The notes under the pieces: model-generated
The model's input: the letters and a program-made list of their open reading frames with translations, nothing else
Database searches by the model: none
Told to the model about the DNA's origin: nothing
NCBI GenBank assembly: GCA_051000345.1
Contig: JBPCOJ010000106.1
Span: 1,775 to 65,774, forward strand
Direction: 5' to 3'
DNA: 64,000 bases
Source of the DNA: Pyrinomonadaceae bacterium
Lineage (GTDB): Bacteria > Acidobacteriota > Blastocatellia > Pyrinomonadales > Pyrinomonadaceae
Position numbers and translations under genes: made by a program
Shown here: positions 5,770 to 18,073 of the stretch, in pieces
Layout: every line of letters begins with the position of its first letter
Numbering within the stretch: the stretch's first letter is position 1

Positions 5770-7707
5770 TTAACGCGACAGCAGCGTGCCGACGTAAGTC
5801 AAGAGTTCGTTCGCGCAGACGGGACAATAACCGTGGTCTTTGACGAGACGATCAATCACTTCGTTGATGCGGCGCAATTGATCCGGGTCGGGCGTCTTAA
5901 CGGACGTTGTGATCTTCACGACATCCTTTAAGTCGGCGAAGATTTTCTTTTCAATTGCTTCCTTGAGACGCTCGTGCGAGTTGTATTCAAAGGCGCGTCC
6001 CTTTCTGGCATACGAAGAAATGCGTATGAGAATCTCCTGCCGGAAAGTATTCTTCGCGTTCTCGCTGATTCCGATCTGCTCTTCGATGGAGCGCATAAGG
6101 CTCTCGTCCGGGTCCATCTCTTCTTCTGTGATCGGGTCTTTAATACGCTCTTTGTTGCAGTAGGATTCGACGTTATCGAGATAGTTATTGCAGATCGTGC
6201 GCGCCATTTCTTCAAACGAATAAACAAAGGCGCGCTGCACTTCTGTTTTGGCGAGTTCGTCATATTCCTTACGCGCCGAAGAAATCAGATTGAGATAGCG
6301 TTCGCGCTGCTCGCCGCTGATGCCCGTGTGCTGCTCGAAGCCGTCTTTGATTGCGCGCAAGGCGTCAATCGGATTGATGCAGGTGATTCCGTCGCGCACA
6401 AGCGCGCCCGACAAACGATTGATAATGTAACGCGGAGAAATGCCGTCCATGCCTTCGCGCACGGTTTCATCCTTCAACTCGCGCACGTCCTTCGATTTAT
6501 AACCTTCAACATCTTCGCCATCGTAGAGCTTCATCTTTTTGGCGATGTCCACGCTGGCGCGTTTCGGTTCTTCGAGGCGCGTCATCACGGCGAACATCGC
6601 GGCGACGCGCAAAGTGTTCGGCGCAAGATGAACGCTGCGCATCGCTTCGGATTGATGCAGCAGCTTGCTGTAAATTTTTTCTTCCTGCGAGACGCGCAAA
6701 TTGTAAGGCACGCGCACAAGGATAATGCGATCCTGCAAGGCTTCGGATTTACGATTGCCTGCGAAGGAGACGTACTCGTTTTCGTTCGTATGCGAGAGAA
6801 TCACTTCGTCCGCATAGATCATCGCAAAACGCCCGGTCTTGATGTTCTGCTCCTGCGACAAAGTCAGCAAGCTATAGAGAAATTTCTCATCGACTTTGAG
6901 CATCTCCACGAATTCCATCACGCCGCGATTAGCAATGTTGAGTTCGCCGTCGAAACGATAGGCGCGCGGATCGGATTCAGCGCCGATTTCGCCGATGGTC
7001 GAGAGATCAATCGAGCCTGTCAGTTCCGTAATGTCCTGGGATTTTGGGTCTGATGGCGCGAATGTGCCGATGCCGACGCGCTCTTTTTCGGAGAAGAGAA
7101 TGCGCTCTACTTTAACGTCTTCGTGGCGTCCGCCGTAAGTGTGTTCGAGAGCATAGCGGCATTGCGGGCAGAGATCGCCTTCGATGTAGAGGCCGTAGTG
7201 CTTTTCGATTTCGGCGCGCAGTTCGTGCGGAATCAAGTGCAGCGGCTCTTCGTGCATCGGGCAATCTTTGATCGCAAAGACCGCGCCCTGTTCGATGCGC
7301 GACCATTCTTCGAGGCCGCGCTTGAGCAAGGTAACGATTGTGGATTTGCCGCCGCCGACAGGCCCCATCAGAAGCAGAATTCTTTTTCTTACTTCGAGGC
7401 GTTGCGCGGCGCTTTTGAAATATTCGACGATGCGCGCAATCGGTTCTTCGATGCCGTAGAGTTCGTCTGCGAAAAAGTTGTAGCGTGTGGTTTCGTCGCG
7501 CGCGCCTTCGTTTAATTTCTCGACGCCCGCGTGGTGAATCATGTTGTTGACGCGCGCGTGCGAGAGTTCGGCAAGACGAGGATTCTGCGAGACGAGTTCA
7601 AAGTAGTCACGGAAAGTGCCTTCCCACTGAAGCGCTTCGCGTTCGCGGCGCAGGTCGTCGAGCCGCTCGCTGATATTGAATTTGTGGTTGCCATCGTGCT
7701 GTTGCAT
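5770..7707 (-). CDS. prkA: PrkA family serine protein kinase (AAA+ N-domain)
   Basis: 645 aa with Walker A LLLMGPVGGGKST. Full-length similarity by eye to PrkA/YeaG. Confidence 0.92.
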   Translation of the reverse strand: MQQHDGNHKFNISERLDDLRREREALQWEGTFRDYFELVSQNPRLAELSHARVNNMIHHAGVEKLNEGARDETTRYNFFADELYGIEEPIARIVEYFKSAAQRLEVRKRILLLMGPVGGGKSTIVTLLKRGLEEWSRIEQGAVFAIKDCPMHEEPLHLIPHELRAEIEKHYGLYIEGDLCPQCRYALEHTYGGRHEDVKVERILFSEKERVGIGTFAPSDPKSQDITELTGSIDLSTIGEIGAESDPRAYRFDGELNIANRGVMEFVEMLKVDEKFLYSLLTLSQEQNIKTGRFAMIYADEVILSHTNENEYVSFAGNRKSEALQDRIILVRVPYNLRVSQEEKIYSKLLHQSEAMRSVHLAPNTLRVAAMFAVMTRLEEPKRASVDIAKKMKLYDGEDVEGYKSKDVRELKDETVREGMDGISPRYIINRLSGALVRDGITCINPIDALRAIKDGFEQHTGISGEQRERYLNLISSARKEYDELAKTEVQRAFVYSFEEMARTICNNYLDNVESYCNKERIKDPITEEEMDPDESLMRSIEEQIGISENAKNTFRQEILIRISSYARKGRAFEYNSHERLKEAIEKKIFADLKDVVKITTSVKTPDPDQLRRINEVIDRLVKDHGYCPVCANELLTYVGTLLSR

Positions 7708-9901: not shown

Positions 9902-12900
9902 TTACGGTTGCCCGCACTCGGCGTCAGAGCGTGTGACGACGGAACTGAAGCGCTCTTGATATTCTCTCGAGGTGAGAAAAGCACACACCATCGCGCGGTA
10001 ATTATTGGCGACGCGCGTATTCAAAACGTTGAGCCAGAATTGATAGCCCGCTTCGTCCGGGTCACGCCTGAGGTAACCGAAGTATTCCATCAACACAAAC
10101 GCGCGATTATATTCGGCTGCCGCAAACGCCGCGTCATCCGTCACAAGACGCAGTACACGCCCGCGATTATTATTGGCATCGTAATCTGCGGTCAAAGCCG
10201 CGCGTTGACTTGAAAGATCGACGCCGGACGTGTCCTTCACGCTCTTAATCAATGCGTCAACGAATTCGCTGTGGCTCAAGTTCGGCGAATACTTTTGCGT
10301 GAATTCCGTGCGTTGCGCAAACTCTTCGGTGAGCGATTGTTTGTTTGCATTCAATTCAGAAGAGGCTATGAGACGGCTGCGGTCGCGCGTGAATTCCACG
10401 TAGGACGGCCTGCGCCCGTAAGCCGCTTTGTAGAGACGATAAACGAACGCGCCTGTTTGCTGAAATTCCTGTTCGATGAAGAATGCGGCGGAAACGCTGA
10501 TGCGGCGCTCGCGTATGCAGCGCGCGTCCGTGCCGCACTGCGCGATTAAATTTGTCCAGTAGTCGAAGCCGCCCGCGTCCGGCAAGCGATTGAGAAAGTC
10601 CGCGTAGTGCTGGCGAACAAAGAAGCGTGTGTCTTCAACAGGATTGCTCGAAGGCTGTGCGGTGTCGTTGTCTTTGATTGTCAGCACTGCCGCGAGCGGA
10701 GCGCCGAGGGCTGTGCCGACAGTTGGATTCCGCAGAATGAGATTGACGGTTCTGTTGCCTTCCACGAAAGCGTTGTCGGTGACGAGCACGTTGAAGGTCT
10801 TGCTCGTTTCGCCGGGCGCGAAGCGAAGGGTGCCGGACGCGGTCGTGTAATTGGAACGCTCCGTAGCAGTGCCTTCGTAGGTGGCATAGTCAACTGTTGC
10901 GGCGCGCGAAGCATCGCCCGTTCTGGTTACAGTAACGGAAGCGCTGCCGCCATCTTCGGCGACGCTGTAGGTGGCGGCGCTGAATTGCAGACTGCTGGCG
11001 GCGGAGTCTGCAATCTTGAGAACAAAAGGACTGAGCAGATTATCATCGTTTGACCGTGTCGGTTCCAAAGCCGGGACGGAGCCTGTATGGATGATGCCGA
11101 CTACCGTTCCGACACTTGCAACTCCTGTGACGTAGGCGCTGCCTGCTGCGTCAACGGCGATGCCTGTTCCACCTTCATCGTAGTTGAGCGCGCCATAATA
11201 AGTTGAGTAGGCGAGAGAATTTGCGCCCGAACTATTTGTATTTATTTTCGTCACGAAAGCGTCCGTGTCATTTCCGCCACCGTGTTTATTTCCCTGTAAG
11301 GCGTCTTTCGTTGGAAAATCGCTTGAGGCAGTTGCTCCCGTCACATAAGCATTGCCTGAAGAATCAGCGGCGAGACTTCCACCGACATCGTAGCGGCTGC
11401 CGCCTAAATAGGTAGAATAGAGCAGTCCCGTGCCAGCGGCATTCAATTTCATCACAAAGGCATTGGATAAACCGCCGCCGTAGCTCGTCTGAAAACCGTT
11501 TACCGTTTGCAGGCCGGGTGAATCACTAAACCCTGTGACATATGCTTGACTCGCCGAATCCACAGCGATAGCGGTCGTATGAGTTCCCAAGAAGAAGTTC
11601 GTTCCGGTGTCCGGCAAAACGAAAGAGTAGACCAACGCAGAACCCGTCGGATTCAACTTCTTGACGAGCGCATCGCCCGTCACATAAGAGTTGCCTGAAG
11701 AGTCCACCGCGACATGAACGTTGTAGGGAGATTTGATGTCGAAGTAGGTCGAGTAAACGAGTGAAGCAGCGCCCGAAGCGTTCGTGTTTATCTTTGCGAC
11801 GAAACTATCGTTATCGTCAGAGTTGCGAAGGCTGATGGTTCTGCGGAAAGCGCCGGGCGTCGTCGGGAAGTCGCTTGAATTTGTATTGCCTGCGATATAG
11901 GCATTGGCCGAAGAATCTATGGCAATGCTTAATCCGAAGTCACGACTGCTGCTGCCACCCAGATACGTCGAATAAAGCAAGTCGCTGCCGGTGGCATTCA
12001 GCTTTGCGACAAAGGCGTTAGTGAAGCTGCGAAGAGCCGGTTGAAAAGCGTTTCGGGTGGGAAAGTCGCTCGAACCCGTTGAGCCTACAACGTAGGCATT
12101 GCCCGCCGAATCCACAGCGATCCCCGAACTGTTGTCACCGCCGCTGCCGTCAAGAAAAGTGCTGTAAACGAAACCGGAACCATCGGCATTAAGTTTTGTG
12201 ACGAAGATTTCGCGGCTGCCGAAACGGTTATTCACTGTTCTTTGAAAAGCGCCGGGCGTCGTCGGGAAATCGGGCGAAGCTGTAAACCCTGTGACGTAAG
12301 CATCGCCCGCAGAGTCTACCGCGATGCCGCTTGTTCCGCTTTGATTTAGACCGCCGTTGCCAAGATAAGTCGCATAAACAAGCACAGGGTCAATCACAAG
12401 CGGCTTCGTCGCATCATATGCGCCGATTGCAAAGCCGACTTCGCGCTTGGAGTTCAGCACATAGCAGCCTGCGACTTCGCGCCGCGCGCCGCTGTTTGAT
12501 TCCTGATAAAGCACGGGCTTGCGTTGACGAATTTCATCTTTACCTGTGCGGAGAATGAGATCGCCCGTCGCACCGATTTTTATTTCGTCAGCGCCCGCAA
12601 AGTCGAGCCGGATGGCTTTCGGATCAGCGCCCGGCGCAACGATGAAATCGTATTCGAGCTGGTTGTGGTTGCCGTAGTAAATCATATCCACGCCCGCGTA
12701 AACATTTTCGTATTTCACTTGGCGATAGGCGGCAATGTTTGTTTGCCAACGCTGCGGATCGTTACCGGTCAGATAATTAATCTTGCCGGGCAATTCTTCC
12801 AGCCCTGTCACGCGCGCTTGGGGATTGGCGTTCATTAGCTTCATACGCAAAGTTGTTTGCGATGCCGGACGCGGTGCATGAAAGGCGGCACTTGAATTGT

Positions 12901-13330
12901 TCAGCTCTTTGTTGCGCTGACTATTTCCTTCTTTGCGACTTCCATTTTTATGCAACGCCAGCACGGTTTCCGTCGGAGTCAAAAAGAGATTGTAGCCCGC
13001 CCCGCGCGCTAAGAATTTGACCGCCGCGTTTGACTGTCCGCGATTTGCTTCAAAACTCAAAGGCAACTCGCCGTAAGCCTGATTGATGCGCGCACGGGTT
13101 GACTGCTCTGTTGCAGAGGGTGCGGAGCGAGTCGAAGCCTTGGCGCTCTTGCCGGAAGCGTTCGCCGAATCATTTGCTGACTTTGCGAGCTTCGATAGGG
13201 CGACTGCTTGCGGCGCGGGTTTACTTCGATTGAGAGAATAGCCCGGCAAAGCAATCGAGTTTATTAAACCGATCAGCGCTAATGCAGCGGCGACGTGTGA
13301 TATGTGCCCTCTTCTTGAATACTTCATCAC
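9902..13330 (-). CDS. secreted giant protein: SBBP beta-propeller repeats + Calx-beta + two DUF4214 domains
   Basis: 1142 aa with a signal peptide. It has many repeats of the type G.A.D..GNAYV.G.T.S.DFPT (SBBP), then a Calx-beta-like block (LQFSAATYSVAEDGGSASVTVTRTGDAS..TVDYAT..GTA...DY), then two DUF4214-like motifs (FVRQHYADFLNRLPDAGGFDYW and YFGYLRRDPDEAGYQFW). Confidence 0.8.
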   Translation of the reverse strand: MMKYSRRGHISHVAAALALIGLINSIALPGYSLNRSKPAPQAVALSKLAKSANDSANASGKSAKASTRSAPSATEQSTRARINQAYGELPLSFEANRGQSNAAVKFLARGAGYNLFLTPTETVLALHKNGSRKEGNSQRNKELNNSSAAFHAPRPASQTTLRMKLMNANPQARVTGLEELPGKINYLTGNDPQRWQTNIAAYRQVKYENVYAGVDMIYYGNHNQLEYDFIVAPGADPKAIRLDFAGADEIKIGATGDLILRTGKDEIRQRKPVLYQESNSGARREVAGCYVLNSKREVGFAIGAYDATKPLVIDPVLVYATYLGNGGLNQSGTSGIAVDSAGDAYVTGFTASPDFPTTPGAFQRTVNNRFGSREIFVTKLNADGSGFVYSTFLDGSGGDNSSGIAVDSAGNAYVVGSTGSSDFPTRNAFQPALRSFTNAFVAKLNATGSDLLYSTYLGGSSSRDFGLSIAIDSSANAYIAGNTNSSDFPTTPGAFRRTISLRNSDDNDSFVAKINTNASGAASLVYSTYFDIKSPYNVHVAVDSSGNSYVTGDALVKKLNPTGSALVYSFVLPDTGTNFFLGTHTTAIAVDSASQAYVTGFSDSPGLQTVNGFQTSYGGGLSNAFVMKLNAAGTGLLYSTYLGGSRYDVGGSLAADSSGNAYVTGATASSDFPTKDALQGNKHGGGNDTDAFVTKINTNSSGANSLAYSTYYGALNYDEGGTGIAVDAAGSAYVTGVASVGTVVGIIHTGSVPALEPTRSNDDNLLSPFVLKIADSAASSLQFSAATYSVAEDGGSASVTVTRTGDASRAATVDYATYEGTATERSNYTTASGTLRFAPGETSKTFNVLVTDNAFVEGNRTVNLILRNPTVGTALGAPLAAVLTIKDNDTAQPSSNPVEDTRFFVRQHYADFLNRLPDAGGFDYWTNLIAQCGTDARCIRERRISVSAAFFIEQEFQQTGAFVYRLYKAAYGRRPSYVEFTRDRSRLIASSELNANKQSLTEEFAQRTEFTQKYSPNLSHSEFVDALIKSVKDTSGVDLSSQRAALTADYDANNNRGRVLRLVTDDAAFAAAEYNRAFVLMEYFGYLRRDPDEAGYQFWLNVLNTRVANNYRAMVCAFLTSREYQERFSSVVTRSDAECGQP

Positions 13331-13391
13331 TTACTTCCTTTCGTTCGTTCATTTCCCAACTCCAATGAGAAACGTCATGCTTTGATTTGTA

Positions 13392-14513
13392 TTAACGTTT
13401 GCGTATCAGGCTACGCTTGCGCGGCGTCGCAGGGACTCTCACGGCAAGCAATTTTGTATGTTTATTTTTAAGCAGAGAGTTCAGCGAGCCGTGATCGTCG
13501 AAGCCTAAAAGTTTGGCGGCGTGCGAGACTCTTCCTTCCGCTTCCTTGAGCGCGCTTTCGATGTAGCGTTCCTCCATGCGGCGCACTTCATCTTTGAGCG
13601 AAAAGTTTTCCCAAGAATGGACTGTCTCGCTTTCCGGCAGTTGCTCCGTCGCCGTTTGCTTATCTGCCTGTACGCTTTGCACGACAAGCGCGCGGCGTGC
13701 GGCACGGCGCAGGCGTTCGAGAATTTCGAGAGGCGGCGCGGCGGCAAGCAATTCGTCTGCGCGACGATAGCTAAATCGGATTTCATCTGCACTCAAGTGA
13801 TCGCCGAGTTCTTCGATCATCGTGAGCAACGCGAGGCTTGCGCCTTCGGCGTTGCCCGATTGCACGGCTATTTCAACGGCGCGTTCGAGCGCGGCCTGTG
13901 CGGGCAAACGTCTGGCGTTTCTGGCGAGCGTCACCGCGTGCGTCGTCAGGGCTTCGGCAAGAAGCGCGTACTCGTCGCCCTTCATCAAAGCGTTGACGGC
14001 CTGCCGTGCAATCTTTTCGGCTTCGGGAAAACGTCGCTCGGCGAGCAGCGCACGCGCACGCGTTTCGTTTACCTGCGCCGTGTGTACGCCGTCCTTGAGA
14101 CGCGCGAACAAACGCCTCGCGCGTTCGAGATGTTCGTGCGCTTCCGTGAACCGCGCGGCGTTGAAGAAGAGAAAACCCAGATTGTTTTCCACCGCCGCTT
14201 GATAACGCGTGTGCCGCGCTTGCTCGAAGTGAAAGCCTGCGGCGGCGTATTCAAGGAGCGCGCGGTCTCTGTAATCTTCGCGGTGCTCAATGCCGCTTAA
14301 GACATTAAGGACGCTCGCGAGTTCGTTGTGAAATTTGCCTTTGAGCGCGTGGCTGTTGCTTTTCTCAAAGAGCGGCGCGGCACCCGTCAAGATACGCAAC
14401 GCATCGCTGTAACGAGTCGCGGAAGCTTCGATGATCGCGCCGCGCAGCAAAGCGATTGACTTTAATTCGTTTTCGCCGTCGCCTAATTTGCCGAGCACCT
14501 CGCGCAGCATCAC
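13392..14513 (-). CDS. TPR-repeat protein with C-terminal Fis-type (HTH_8) DNA-binding domain; apparently 5'-truncated
   Basis: 373 aa with TPR-like helices throughout. The C-terminus RVSHAAKLLGFDDHGSLNSLLKNKH is an HTH_8 signature. TPR-like reading frame continues 30 codons upstream of the first start codon with no start (see findings). Confidence 0.6.
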   Translation of the reverse strand: MMLREVLGKLGDGENELKSIALLRGAIIEASATRYSDALRILTGAAPLFEKSNSHALKGKFHNELASVLNVLSGIEHREDYRDRALLEYAAAGFHFEQARHTRYQAAVENNLGFLFFNAARFTEAHEHLERARRLFARLKDGVHTAQVNETRARALLAERRFPEAEKIARQAVNALMKGDEYALLAEALTTHAVTLARNARRLPAQAALERAVEIAVQSGNAEGASLALLTMIEELGDHLSADEIRFSYRRADELLAAAPPLEILERLRRAARRALVVQSVQADKQTATEQLPESETVHSWENFSLKDEVRRMEERYIESALKEAEGRVSHAAKLLGFDDHGSLNSLLKNKHTKLLAVRVPATPRKRSLIRKR

Positions 14514-14667
14514 GCGCGCTTCATCGAGCGCGCCTTCGCGCCAGTAGCAATAAGCGAGTTCGATTTGCGCAGAGAACTTCTTTATTAAGTATTTGGTAGT
14601 GAGTCAGTTTCACTGAAAACCGGTAAGCATTATCTCGGAATTTCAAACTGGCTCACGACTGTTTACG

Positions 14668-14696
14668 TTGACATTGTCTCATAGGATAGATACGAT
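14668..14696 (+). promoter_or_regulatory. sigma70-type promoter of the mini-protein gene
   Basis: TTGACA (14668-14673), 17-nt spacer, TACGAT (14691-14696). It lies about 65 nt upstream of the ATG at 14762. Confidence 0.5.
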
Positions 14697-14761
14697 ACTT
14701 TATCGGTCGTACTTAGTTCGCAGAAGATTATTGTTGCTAAACAAAAAGGAGAGATATTGAT

Positions 14762-14974
14762 ATGCGCAAAACCCTTGGTTCTCTGGTTCTAATCTGTGTT
14801 CTCTCGGTCAGCTCACTGGCGGGGATAATACACACGGGAATAACCGATTCTGATAGCGGAAGCACTGATACTCCGCAAACCGCCGGAATAATACACACCG
14901 GTGTTGCCGATGATAGCGGTACGACCCTTTCTTTATACGTTGTATCGTTACTCGGACTTCCTTGGAATCTATAA
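14762..14974 (+). CDS. secreted 70-aa mini-protein with two tandem AGIIHTG repeats
   Basis: An AAGGAGAG SD sits 8 nt before the ATG. The signal peptide is MRKTLGSLVLICVLSVSSLA|G, followed by two 21-aa repeats (aa 20-40 and 41-61) and a hydrophobic tail. Nucleotide differences inside the repeated 7-codon motif are all synonymous. Confidence 0.6.
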   Translation: MRKTLGSLVLICVLSVSSLAGIIHTGITDSDSGSTDTPQTAGIIHTGVADDSGTTLSLYVVSLLGLPWNL

Positions 14975-15195
14975 GCTATAGCAATTTGAGAGGTGTCAGT
15001 CGGGGTAATTTTGGGCGACCACTTCACACTGCTACTTTCAAGCGTTTGATTCTAAAGACGTTCTCTTTCTGAGTGAACGTCCATCCCATCATGCTCTAAA
15101 TTCCTTTTGCCTAACAACTCATTCAAGCAGAATCAAATTTCACTGTTAAATTTGCATAATGCCTAGAACTATCTCTTACTGACCTCGGATTTCCG

Positions 15196-15212
15196 TTGCA
15201 CTTTAAGTGCAA
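15196..15212. promoter_or_regulatory. perfect 7-3-7 palindrome TTGCACT-TTA-AGTGCAA
   Basis: Read directly from the sequence in the non-coding stretch upstream of alaS. Function unknown. Confidence 0.3.
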
Positions 15213-15250
15213 TACAATACCGGTGCGCTTTAAGGCATAGATCGAGTAAT

Positions 15251-15307
15251 GTCCTAGTTTGAAAATCTTAGCCCGATAAACATTGGCCTATATTTTCAAA
15301 CTAGGAC
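15251..15307. promoter_or_regulatory. perfect 16-bp inverted repeat (25-nt spacer) about 80 bp upstream of alaS
   Basis: gtcctagtttgaaaat (15251-15266) pairs with attttcaaactaggac (15292-15307). No T-run follows, so it is not a classic terminator. Confidence 0.5.
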
Positions 15308-15388
15308 ACTACCCATAGTCGGTATCGCTTCTTTCATCTTCGTCCAGCGTGTTACACTTTATGTTTTAGACCAACGTGAAGTGAAGCA

Positions 15389-18073
15389 ATGACGATGACC
15401 GGAAAAGAAATCCGTGAAAAGTTTTTAGAGTATTTCGAGCGGCACGGGCATACGCGCGTGGCGTCTAGCCCCTTGCTGCCCGCAAACGATCCGACGCTGC
15501 TGTTCGCCAACGCGGGCATGAATCAGTTCAAGGATGTGTTCACGGGCGCAGAGCTTCGTGATTACACGCGCGCCGCTTCGTCGCAGAAATGCATACGCGC
15601 GGGCGGCAAGCACAACGACTTGGACGAAGTCGGCAAGACCGCGCGTCATCACACTTTCTTCGAGATGCTCGGCAATTTTTCCTTCGGCGATTACTTCAAG
15701 CGCGAAGCCATAGAGTTCGCGTGGGACTTGCTTTTGAATGTTTATAAACTCCCTGTCGAACGGCTCTGGTTTACGGTTTATAAAACCGACGAAGAAGCCG
15801 CGCGTTTATGGATTGACGTGGGCGCAGCGCCTGATCGCATACTGCGCTTCGACGAGAAGGATAATTTCTGGCAGATGGGCGACACGGGGCCGTGCGGCCC
15901 GTGCAGCGAAATCCATTACTACATGGGCGAAGACCCGCATGACCCTGCGAAGAATCGCGCAGAGTTCGTCAACGGAGCGGGCGACACGACGATGGAGATT
16001 TGGAATCTAGTCTTCATGCAATACGAACGCGACGCTTCCGGCACGCTCACGCCCTTGCCGAAGCCTTCGGTTGACACGGGCATGGGACTCGAACGCCTCT
16101 GCGCCGTGCTGCAAAACGTGCCGACGAACTACGACACGGATTTGCTGCGCCCGATCATCGAATTCACCGCGCAACTCGCGGATATAAATTACACGCCCGA
16201 TTCGCCCGAAGGCTTTGCGATGCGCGTCATCGCAGACCACGCGCGCGCCACAGCCTTTGCGATTGCCGACAACATTTTGCCCGGCAACGAAGGCCGCAAT
16301 TATGTGTTGCGCAAAATCATGCGCCGCGCAATTTATCAAGGCCACCACACGCTTCATTTTGAAGATGCGTTCTTCTACAAAGTGACTAACTTTGTCGTCG
16401 AAACGATGCGCGGCGTGTACACGGAACTCGAAGCCGCGCGCGAATTCATCGAACGCATGGTCAAACTCGAAGAAGAACGCTTTAGCTCGACTTTAACCAT
16501 CGGCCTGCAAAAACTCGATGCGCTTTTCGCGTCCAACGAAGAAGGCAAGCTCCCGGATTACAAGGAACTCGCGCGCCTTTACGATACCTTCGGCACGCCG
16601 CGCGATTTAATTCGCGTCAGCCTTGAAGGACGCGGCTTTAAGCTTGAGGAAGAATCTTTTAATGAAAGTTTCGAGACGGCGTTGCGGGAGATTCAGCGCG
16701 CCAGCGTGCAAGACAAAGCACAGGCGCGCACGAAAGCCAAGCCCGTCTATGCGCAGATAAGCGAACGAATTAATCGCCGCACGGAATTTACCGGCTACGA
16801 AGGCACGCGCCTTGATGATGTGCGCGTTGCCGCCATCATCAAAGGTGAAGAAGAAGTTGCGGAGTTGCGCGAAGGCGAAGAAGGCGAGGTAATTTTAGAG
16901 CGCACGCCGTTTTACGCGGAGTCCGGCGGACAAATCGGTGACACAGGCACGTTCGTCAACACATCGACGCGCGTTGTCATCAACGATACGGTTGCGCCCG
17001 TTTCAGGATTGACAGTCCACCGTGTAAGCGTTGAGCGCGGCAGTTTGCGCGTTGGTGAGATATTGACGGCGCAGATTGACGCTGAGAAACGCGATGCGAC
17101 GAGGCGCAATCACACGGCCACGCATTTGCTTCATGCGGCATTGCGCGAACTTTTGGGGACGCACGTTAAGCAGGCCGGGTCACTTGTTGCGCCGAATCGT
17201 TTGCGTTTCGATTTTTCGCATTTTCAACCTTTGACGCGCGACGAAGTGGCGGAGATCGAGCGGCTCGTTAATTATCAGATCCTGCGCAACGAACCCGTGG
17301 AGACGGAGATTGTGCCGCTCGAACAAGCGATGCAGTCGGGCGCGATGGCTTTGTTCGGCGAAAAGTATGCGGAGCAAGTGCGCGTCTTGACCATTCAGGG
17401 CTTCTCCAAAGAATTGTGCGGCGGCACGCATGTGCGCGCGACGGGCGACATCGGCTTGTTCAAGGTCGTGCGCGATGAAGCAGTCGCGTCCGGCACGCGT
17501 CGCATAGAGGCCGTGACGGGCGCGGATGCGTTCATGCGCTTTCAGGAAACAGAGGCGCTTGTGGATCGAGTTGCGGCGGAACTTCGCACATCGCGCACGG
17601 GGATTCCGGCGACAGTCGAGCGGTTGCAGGAAGAATTGAAAAAGGCCAGACGCGAAGCCGATGAACTGCGTTTGAAATTGGCGACGGGCGCGGGCGGCAC
17701 AGATGGTGCGTCAAACGGCAACGCGGCGCGCGAAGTGGCGACGGGCGTGCGCGTGCTGGCGCGCGTCGTCGAAGGACTCGATGCCGCGGGGATGCGGCAA
17801 TTGTCGGACACTTTGCTTGCCCGATTAAACGGCTCCGGCGTGGTCGTTTTAGGGCGTAGCGGCGATGACGGCAAAGTTTCGCTTATCGTGCGTTCGTCAG
17901 CGGATTTAATGAAGCGCGTTCCGGCGGGTCAGGTGATTAAAGAGATTGCGCCGATAGTGGGCGGGCGCGGCGGCGGCAAGCCCGACATGGCCGAAGGCGG
18001 CGGCACTCAACCGGAGAAATTAGCGGAAGCACTGGAAGCGAGCTATGCAGTTGTCGAGCGTTTGCTGAATTGA
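15389..18073 (+). CDS. alaS: alanine--tRNA ligase
   Basis: 894 aa. FLEYFERHGHTRVASSPL, FFEMLGNFSFGDYFK, editing-domain HTATHLLHAAL and CGGTH are present. Confidence 0.97.
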   Translation: MTMTGKEIREKFLEYFERHGHTRVASSPLLPANDPTLLFANAGMNQFKDVFTGAELRDYTRAASSQKCIRAGGKHNDLDEVGKTARHHTFFEMLGNFSFGDYFKREAIEFAWDLLLNVYKLPVERLWFTVYKTDEEAARLWIDVGAAPDRILRFDEKDNFWQMGDTGPCGPCSEIHYYMGEDPHDPAKNRAEFVNGAGDTTMEIWNLVFMQYERDASGTLTPLPKPSVDTGMGLERLCAVLQNVPTNYDTDLLRPIIEFTAQLADINYTPDSPEGFAMRVIADHARATAFAIADNILPGNEGRNYVLRKIMRRAIYQGHHTLHFEDAFFYKVTNFVVETMRGVYTELEAAREFIERMVKLEEERFSSTLTIGLQKLDALFASNEEGKLPDYKELARLYDTFGTPRDLIRVSLEGRGFKLEEESFNESFETALREIQRASVQDKAQARTKAKPVYAQISERINRRTEFTGYEGTRLDDVRVAAIIKGEEEVAELREGEEGEVILERTPFYAESGGQIGDTGTFVNTSTRVVINDTVAPVSGLTVHRVSVERGSLRVGEILTAQIDAEKRDATRRNHTATHLLHAALRELLGTHVKQAGSLVAPNRLRFDFSHFQPLTRDEVAEIERLVNYQILRNEPVETEIVPLEQAMQSGAMALFGEKYAEQVRVLTIQGFSKELCGGTHVRATGDIGLFKVVRDEAVASGTRRIEAVTGADAFMRFQETEALVDRVAAELRTSRTGIPATVERLQEELKKARREADELRLKLATGAGGTDGASNGNAAREVATGVRVLARVVEGLDAAGMRQLSDTLLARLNGSGVVVLGRSGDDGKVSLIVRSSADLMKRVPAGQVIKEIAPIVGGRGGGKPDMAEGGGTQPEKLAEALEASYAVVERLLN

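Follow-up and report, generated by a model that had tools for sequence, protein, structure and literature searches.

What is the function of a hexapeptide that stands twice in a small, putatively secreted protein and once more in the giant surface protein encoded beside it? This question is raised by a 64,000-nt stretch of Pyrinomonadaceae DNA (contig JBPCOJ010000106.1 of assembly GCA_051000345.1; the window hereafter denotes this whole stretch), in which an open reading frame (ORF) of an AT-rich island encodes a 70-aa mini-protein carrying two copies of GIIHTG. An initial annotation, made from the letters of the window, regarded the mini-protein as an orphan and proposed either a multi-core precursor, signalling or of the RiPP type (ribosomally synthesized and post-translationally modified peptide), or a tag shared with the giant protein. 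The comparisons reported here indicate that the window carries one copy, recently transferred and somewhat atypical, of a very large and hitherto undescribed cassette family of Acidobacteria, in which a mini-protein gene is paired with the gene of a regulator containing tetratricopeptide repeats (TPRs). By analogy, we tentatively read the two proteins as an exported pro-peptide and TPR-receptor pair of the RRNPP-like kind, with a rough probability of 0.4. The features of the mini-protein gene in the window are the following.

14762..14974, plus strand: mini-protein gene P0001, 70 aa, from the ORF and its translation; a divergent member of an unnamed family
14762..14821, plus strand: signal peptide, aa 1-20, MRKTLGSLVLICVLSVSSLA, with a predicted signal peptidase I cut after S-L-A
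14822..14839, plus strand: motif copy 1, GIIHTG, aa 21-26, the predicted mature N-terminus; 19.4 bits with the family position-specific scoring matrix (PSSM)
14885..14902, plus strand: motif copy 2, GIIHTG, aa 42-47; 19.4 bits with the family PSSM
14915..14971, plus strand: C-terminal hydrophobic tail, aa 52-70, SGTTLSLYVVSLLGLPWNL, the divergent counterpart of the amphipathic helix of the family
14746..14753, plus strand: Shine-Dalgarno sequence AAGGAGAG, 8 nt before the ATG, read off the sequence
14668..14696, plus strand: inferred sigma-70-like promoter candidate TTGACA-N17-TACGAT, matching 10 of 12 positions in a consensus scan

Translation reproduced the initially annotated ORF and its 70-aa product exactly, and the Shine-Dalgarno sequence was read directly at the place given for it. 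The promoter was found where it had been proposed, but three promoter-like sites were detected around the mini gene against 1.8 expected in shuffled sequences, and because such sites are not enriched, TTGACA-N17-TACGAT is no evidence by itself. In the signal peptide a basic N-region precedes a hydrophobic core, and positions -3 and -1 are occupied by small residues; the cleavage call is rule-based. AlphaFold 2 (AF2) placed a helix over residues 3-20. A small-x-Ala context had been described before both motif copies; it holds for copy 1 (S-L-A before the Gly), whereas at copy 2 (Q-T-A) the -1 residue alone fits. The identical 70-aa mini-protein was found on five contigs from independent assemblies.

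The two copies lie in a direct repeat (14819-14848 and 14882-14911) with the 63-nt spacing, or 21 codons, expected of the two 21-aa tandem repeats initially described, but the repetition is limited to the 7-residue motif AGIIHTG, and the rest of each unit is alike in composition only. As had been pointed out, the two 21-nt motif stretches differ at four positions, all of them synonymous third-codon changes (GCG/GCC, GGG/GGA, ACG/ACC and GGA/GGT); three fall within the six GIIHTG codons and the fourth is in the preceding Ala codon. By our own calculation, the probability that four randomly placed differences in 21 positions all fall on third positions is 35/5985 = 0.006.

Other identities of the ORF and its product were rejected. 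An Rfam search of 13000-16000 at permissive E-values returned only spurious microRNA matches on a palindrome (MIR8001, both strands), the palindrome being a repeat-like insertion described below; this outcome, together with a transcript fold like that of shuffled sequences (z = -0.41), led us to reject a non-coding RNA in place of the gene. A lipoprotein was dismissed since the product has no lipobox L-[AS]-[GA]-C, C12 of the window protein stands in L-I-C-V and the signal peptides of many related proteins have no Cys. The lipoprotein, type IV pilin-like, and amino-terminal Cu(II)- and Ni(II)-binding (ATCUN) or other metal-site readings were all rejected because Cys and His are unconserved at the relevant positions.

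The first homology search recovered only two weak relatives, both of which shared the whole architecture of the window protein. A profile of these three proteins retrieved 116 small proteins in a word-indexed search, and when 1.84 billion cluster representatives were searched exhaustively with the profile, 1,922 were hit at E ≤ 1e-3 and 298 at E ≤ 1e-10, the members being nearly all 55-120 aa and mostly 60-90 aa long. Against a family hidden Markov model (HMM) from which it had been left out, the window protein scored 41.9 bits (E 5e-15) over residues 1-64 of 70, with a linker and tail that depart from the family consensus in the HMM alignment. The common plan consists of a signal peptide, the motif at the cleavage site, a Pro/Thr-rich acidic linker, none to three more motif copies and a C-terminal amphipathic helix. 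The signal peptides often start with MRKTL and end small-x-small (A-x-A followed by Gly in 201 of 302 members), and the mature part, with a median of 52 aa, contains nearly no Lys or Arg. The C-terminus is a Leu-rich amphipathic helix ending in L-[L/F/P], with Leu at -2 in 265/316 members and a mean helical moment of 1.35. AF2 supplied with the family alignment predicted helices in the signal peptide and at the C-terminus, with a disordered stretch between them. Among moderately related pairs, identity was 0.74 in the signal peptide, 0.70 in copy 1, 0.66 in the tail, 0.54 in the linker and 0.44 in the later copies. The tail of the window protein, LSLYVVSLLGLPWNL, is hydrophobic (mean hydropathy 1.32) and predicted helical by AF2 over residues 52-65 with low confidence; it aligns weakly to the family tail consensus, has no terminal basic cluster and reaches a helical moment of 0.66 compared with the family mean.

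Nothing above cut-off was found in Pfam and NCBIfam for the window mini-protein or six other members, and the literature search returned nothing on the family, on the motif in such a context or on RRNPP-type systems in Acidobacteria. Where a carrier genome is named, it is that of a Pyrinomonadaceae bacterium or an unclassified Acidobacteriota metagenome-assembled genome, and members of the family are currently annotated as 'hypothetical' or are not called. We conclude that the mini ORF is a real gene, encoding a predicted Sec-exported mini-protein of a large undescribed Acidobacteriota family found mainly in Pyrinomonadaceae. One sub-family (L055, L058, L071, L072, L074, L076, L083, L087, L089, L093 and L095) has the unit G-[E/D/Q]-x-x-T-P-P-C, for example GETSTPPCAPPEPGETQTPPC; at least two Cys occur in the mature part of 15/302 members, and the paired Cys of this sub-family suggest a disulfide-linked variant.

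The family motif, G-[E/I/D]-[I/M]-x-[T/N]-[P/G/D], is located exactly at the predicted signal-peptidase site in 302 of 316 members, and its opening Gly is invariant in all 302. Position 4 is His in 112 of these members, with P, Q, L, S and G also common, and GIIHT[GP] is among the commonest forms of the motif in the family. PSSM scanning detected one to three extra copies in 48% of members versus 1% of shuffled sequences, the last copy usually lying 25-29 residues from the C-terminus. Copies identical at five or more of the six positions were found in 11.6% of comparisons within proteins and in 2.9% between proteins. Where DNA was available, 76 of the 143 residues identical between copies were encoded by different codons, and among six perfectly identical copy pairs from different lineages (GIIHTG, GEMDTG, GEIPGP, GEMQTT and, twice, GQISTP) 20 of 36 codons were synonymously changed. 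Since the codons have diverged while the residues match, the copies are old in DNA and held identical in the peptide. These codon comparisons indicate that selection holds the copies within a protein identical while the motif sequence varies by lineage, which is how a recognition code with a co-evolving reader would behave.

Family-wide, D, N or G stands before the later copies in place of A-x-A; signal peptidase therefore cannot expose them, and another protease would be needed if they are exposed. Internal copies mostly follow Asp or Asn. The resulting D-G and N-G junctions are chemically labile and also correspond to the specificity of Asn/Asp-directed endopeptidases, so that they represent a possible processing rule.

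A candidate for the partner lies next to the mini gene. In all 11 mini-side loci (L001-L011), the mini gene is divergent from a gene for a ~490-aa regulator of the TPR_12 type with a C-terminal Fis-type helix-turn-helix (HTH) domain, HTH_8, and the distance from regulator ATG to mini ATG is 114-122 nt. Reciprocally, 80 metagenome loci were recovered with a regulator alignment, and among the 64 with enough upstream sequence a divergent upstream mini gene of the family was present in 61; L069, which has less upstream sequence and is outside the 64, carries a more divergent mini look-alike below the HMM threshold. ORF clustering of 12 loci with flanks of up to 10 kb, and of the downstream genes of 40 more, found the regulator alone conserved, the genes downstream of it varying between loci. 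The cassette was essentially absent from viral contigs, and a phage origin was rejected accordingly. Full-length regulators are 488-494 aa long (492 in the canonical cassette), match TPR_12, TPR_2 and TPR_19, carry the HTH (PF02954) at the C-terminus and have no membrane segment (maximum 19-residue hydropathy 1.24). The regulator profile matched kinesin-light-chain TPRs and the HTHs of FleQ, ZraR, NtrC and Fis in the PDB, and a single-sequence AF2 model reached a predicted local distance difference test score (pLDDT) of 58, too poor for fold comparison. Collectively, the loci indicate that a mini gene of the family and the divergent gene of a cytoplasmic TPR and Fis-type HTH regulator together make up a cassette that is complete in itself. 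In the window this partner is as follows.

13392..14573, minus strand: partner gene encoding the TPR_12 and C-terminal Fis-type HTH_8 regulator, from Pfam and alignment to full-length 492-aa homologues

The window regulator is missing about 114 N-terminal residues: homology continues to 14573 and is followed by a stop, and the first in-frame start is a GTG at 14513. In tblastn the window matched regulator residues 115-490, and the window copy, of 373 aa, still matches TPR_12.

The spacer between the two genes of L001-L011 (for example L002:189-307) contains, on the regulator sense strand, a GC-rich hairpin followed by U6, which is terminator-like and lies ~55 nt before the regulator ATG. A second spacer hairpin follows, with compensatory changes in nine pairs; at its base, this U-run is paired with the GGAAGG Shine-Dalgarno sequence of the regulator. 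The two hairpins look like a conserved regulatory leader or attenuator. This leader is missing in the window, where the island took its place. At L028 (5453-5686) a second family mini gene was found ~1 kb downstream of the regulator with no room for a regulator of its own, so some genomes may carry extra unpaired copies.

The recurrence of GIIHTG outside the family was examined in the adjacent giant protein, where its position agrees with the initial annotation.

9902..13330, minus strand: giant secreted DUF7948/SBBP/Calx-beta/DUF4214 protein, 1142 aa, from Pfam; 61 nt downstream of the regulator on the same strand
11081..11098, minus strand: GIIHTG, aa 745-750 of the giant protein, in the linker that joins the last SBBP blade to the Calx-beta domain

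From composition, the hexapeptide is expected 1.3e-5 times in the giant protein and 3.3e-4 times in all long open frames of the window. It is invariant in five orthologues of 51-75% identity (those of the window, L017, L059 and L037 and the fragment P0311, mostly from regulator loci), and the ~10 residues on either side of it vary. The gene order, regulator and then giant, is the same in the window, L017, L059 and L037, and the regulator loci that have no mini gene, L059, L037 and L046, are the closest to the window regulator (88%, 65% and 59% identity). A search with a giant-protein segment was swamped by generic SBBP-repeat proteins of at most 550 aa and gave one orthologue fragment, P0311. 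No shared 5-mers of note were detected between mini-protein and neighbours in the other loci. Across the family the giant protein is accordingly no regular partner; its gene goes with that of the regulator in a single sub-clade, which is otherwise without the mini gene. The recurrence of GIIHTG in the giant protein is probably not accidental: a hexapeptide that stays constant within a variable, exposed linker, in a protein whose gene is tied to the regulator family, suggests a linear motif with a function. The idea of a tag shared with the giant protein is thereby strengthened for this sub-clade and not for the family at large.

How the mini gene came to stand beside a truncated regulator was traced through the island that contains it, whose AT-richness had been noted at the outset.

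14571..15325, about 755 nt, no strand assigned: AT-rich island with the mini gene, without homology to L059; both flanks align at 85-91%
15236..15313, 78 nt, no strand assigned: palindromic insertion resembling a miniature inverted-repeat transposable element (MITE), with CATAG on both sides and 28-nt inverted arms that are 86% complementary

The GC content is 0.40-0.45 in the island compared with 0.52-0.63 in its flanks. The sister lineage L059 has alaS, a 236-nt spacer, a full-length regulator and the giant gene, and no mini gene; relative to it, the island replaces 402 nt of regulator coding sequence (the 5' third) and ~96 nt of the regulator-alaS spacer. The same island is found in a second lineage (L012 and L014-L017). 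In the 875 nt from 14514 to 15388, the window and L017 are separated by six substitutions (0.8%) and one 78-nt indel, while their flanking genes differ by 10-22% (synonymous divergence, dS, 0.41-0.74) and other spacers by 6-38%. In the regulator gene tree, L017 groups with the island-free L059 (dS 0.185) and not with the window (dS 0.41). The near identity of the island and the conflicting regulator tree together show that it has recently moved laterally between lineages. The low-divergence tract stops ~20 nt within either neighbouring gene, the pattern that homologous recombination would leave. Strain comparison is therefore unusable as proof of purifying selection on the mini-protein, since the island is near-identical even at synonymous and non-coding sites and its identity reflects the recent transfer; for the same reason, the omega of 0.14 (nonsynonymous over synonymous rate) of the truncated regulator is silent on its function after truncation.

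The MITE-like insertion is present in the window and, among the fetched loci, only in L013, and it is precisely absent from L012 and L014-L017. A weaker third copy of its terminal repeat (74% complementary) lies at 14638-14660, just upstream of the promoter candidate of the mini gene, so that repeat-like sequences bracket the gene; this bracketing may be due to chance or may be a trace of the movement of the island. With the arrival of the island, the truncated regulator and the giant gene were deprived of their native promoter. A promoter-like site on the minus strand, TTCACT-N17-TAGAAT (15077-15049; 9/12 positions), faces antisense through the mini gene towards these two genes.

What the cassette does has to be judged largely by analogy. 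In the reading we favour, the mini-protein would be an exported pro-peptide whose hexapeptide units serve as a lineage-specific recognition code. Signal peptidase would expose the first unit, and the remaining ones would be uncovered or freed by further cuts, made after the D, N or A that precedes each Gly; the peptide would then be sensed by the TPR domain of the adjacent regulator and set transcription, in a receptor/pro-peptide loop working like the RRNPP quorum sensing of Firmicutes. The sub-clade of the window regulator would have lost the mini gene, with one invariant GIIHTG carried by the giant protein encoded downstream, in its exposed linker; later, in the lineage of the window, the ~755-nt island would have brought a mini gene with two GIIHTG units, deleted ~114 regulator codons and spread laterally.

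The closest known systems are those of the RRNPP/RRNPPA group (Rap-Phr, NprR-NprX, PlcR-PapR, PrgX, Rgg-SHP and AimR-AimP) of Firmicutes, their phages and their plasmids, in which a small gene for a Sec-exported pro-peptide likewise adjoins that of a 250-500-aa cytoplasmic TPR protein with a DNA-binding domain. PMC10075063 defines an RRNPP signature by five criteria, namely a pro-peptide of 10-100 aa, secretion by Sec and signal peptidase I, a receptor of 250-500 aa, TPRs and gene adjacency, and the canonical cassette agrees with all five, Sec secretion being a rule-based signal prediction. The repetition of short units in one pro-peptide is another likeness, as in Phr, for tandemly duplicated pheromones are documented in Rap-Phr systems (PMC11343458), and so is the lineage-specific peptide sequence. 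Because of this agreement and the Rap-Phr precedent for tandem units, the RRNPP-like loop is ranked first, and the arrangement resembles peptide-pheromone systems so far known only from Gram-positive bacteria.

The cassette nevertheless differs from RRNPP systems, and a number of observations weigh against the loop. Peptide binding by the TPR domain of the regulator is a prediction, and the regulator profile matched no RRNPP receptor when compared with all PDB sequences. The regulator has its TPRs at the N-terminus and a Fis-type HTH at the C-terminus, as opposed to an XRE-type HTH at the N-terminus; with no detectable sequence kinship to RRNPP receptors, the cassette would not count as a member of that family. 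Its host is a diderm acidobacterium and not a firmicute, so that any peptide set free would need passage through the outer membrane and then uptake back into the cell, a putative step for which ORF clustering of the loci found no linked permease. The putative active unit stands at the mature N-terminus instead of the C-terminus, and phage-borne forms such as RRNPP has were essentially lacking from the viral contigs. The Pro-rich linker and C-terminal amphipathic helix, both conserved, have no RRNPP counterpart, and a bare hexapeptide-pheromone model does not explain them; within the mature part, copy 1 and the helix are in fact the best conserved and the later copies the least. A motif common to the mini-protein and a large neighbour was seen in the lineage of the window only, and the truncated window regulator may be inactive, in which case the loop may not operate here. 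A bolder version, in which the cassette is the first peptide-pheromone/cytoplasmic TPR-receptor system outside Firmicutes, at work in diderm soil Acidobacteria with a lineage-specific G-x-[I/M]-x-[T/N]-[P/G] code in one to four copies and, in one sub-clade, with the same signal hidden in the linker of the giant protein, whose proteolysis feeds the regulator, seems to us doubtful.

A serious competitor, itself short of even odds, is that the mini-protein is a regulated envelope or secreted effector, a ~50-aa acidic Pro/Thr-rich peptide of the periplasm or the surface that acts or is held via its amphipathic helix, while the regulator senses something else; the hexapeptide would then be a docking or processing site for an extracytoplasmic protease, sorting factor or beta-propeller, which would explain its presence in the linker of the giant protein. 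The strong conservation of the C-terminal helix is in its favour, the Pro-rich linker and disordered middle suit a spacer, the giant protein has its GIIHTG flanked by two extracytoplasmic domains, the cassette has no linked import system, and divergent regulator-target pairs are common. The zraP-zraSR locus of E. coli is such a case, with a small periplasmic protein and a divergent regulator carrying a Fis-type HTH. The likeness extends to His-containing motifs in the exported protein and to the ZraR match in the PDB search; in contrast to ZraR, the regulator here has no receiver, AAA+ domain or partner kinase, the motif His is unconserved, and Pfam and NCBIfam searches found no similarity of the mini-protein to ZraP. 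Against the effector, no known envelope-peptide family in these databases matches, the cassette travels as a pair of genes that no third gene regularly accompanies, and the lineage-specific identity of the copies calls for a co-evolving reader, for which the peptide-binding-type domain of the regulator is the sole linked candidate. For the window copy in particular, a more modest explanation is that it is inert or selfish cargo on a recently spread island, with a coincidental GIIHTG in the giant protein and a regulator that is a fresh pseudogene. An island 0.8% divergent in lineages whose flanking genes have reached a dS of ~0.4 has had too little time for selection to show, the regulator has been deprived of ~114 codons and its native promoter, the linker and tail of the window protein are off the family consensus, and GIIHT[GP] is a common motif form. 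Yet the ORF is intact behind a strong Shine-Dalgarno sequence, the copies differ at synonymous sites only (P = 0.006), the hexapeptide had a chance of 1.3e-5 of arising in that neighbour by composition, and it is invariant in giant orthologues whose genes are linked to the same regulator family; we therefore consider the cargo explanation improbable.

The RiPP precursor initially envisaged, in which the hexapeptides are cores modified and excised by maturases encoded elsewhere and the C-terminal helix is a follower or recognition sequence, has the least credit of all and is very improbable. Near-identical short cores with spacers between conserved flanking recognition regions do recall the multi-core precursors of cyanobactins (PatE-type), of fungal Kex2-processed repeats and of plant cyclotides and orbitides, the cores being the variable part, and the D, N or G before later copies recalls Asn/Asp-directed core excision in plant precursors. 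But conserved genes for a radical-SAM enzyme, cyclase, peptidase or transporter were found neither near the 12 clustered loci nor downstream of the regulator in 40 more, a Sec signal peptide is atypical of bacterial RiPP precursors, and export would take the precursor out of the cytoplasm too early for maturases located there to work on it. A PEP-CTERM or VPDSG-CTERM exosortase signal was likewise considered, since D-D-S-G followed by a hydrophobic segment gives a weak HMM match over residues 51-66 of the mini-protein. It was rejected at 13.3 bits against a cut-off of 22 for TIGR03778 and 13.4 bits against 25 for PF18205; in addition, K or R occurs in the last six residues in 10/316 members and not in the window protein, and the tail is hydrophobic enough for a membrane helix in 33/316 members.

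A further difference between the window and L017 lies in a PrkA-like kinase gene, which in L017 (1-2929) contains an intein with a LAGLIDADG endonuclease domain according to Pfam. The copy in the window (5770-7707) has no intein, and their alignment contains 1,341 indel columns.

Taken together, the suspicion that a functional peptide in several copies is connected with the giant protein was largely borne out, the signalling version of it being supported by the motif at the cleavage site, its recurrence, the identity of the copies and the neighbouring TPR and HTH protein. The label of orphan had to be given up, as the leave-one-out HMM match puts the window protein in a large family. The partner regulator, and the recently transferred island that truncated it, had been missed.

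Acidobacteria are among the most abundant soil bacteria, and to our knowledge almost nothing is known of acidobacterial signalling and the regulation of social behaviour. Peptide quorum sensing via cytoplasmic TPR receptors is regarded as a trait of Firmicutes (PMC10075063, PMC9765709). The window shows a 0.75-kb island that spreads laterally between lineages and remodels a regulator, and annotators gain a family of ~2,000 clusters. The cassette is a concrete and cheaply testable candidate for peptide signalling in a diderm phylum; should the signalling reading prove wrong, it would still supply a new short linear motif common to mini-proteins and giant SBBP surface proteins.

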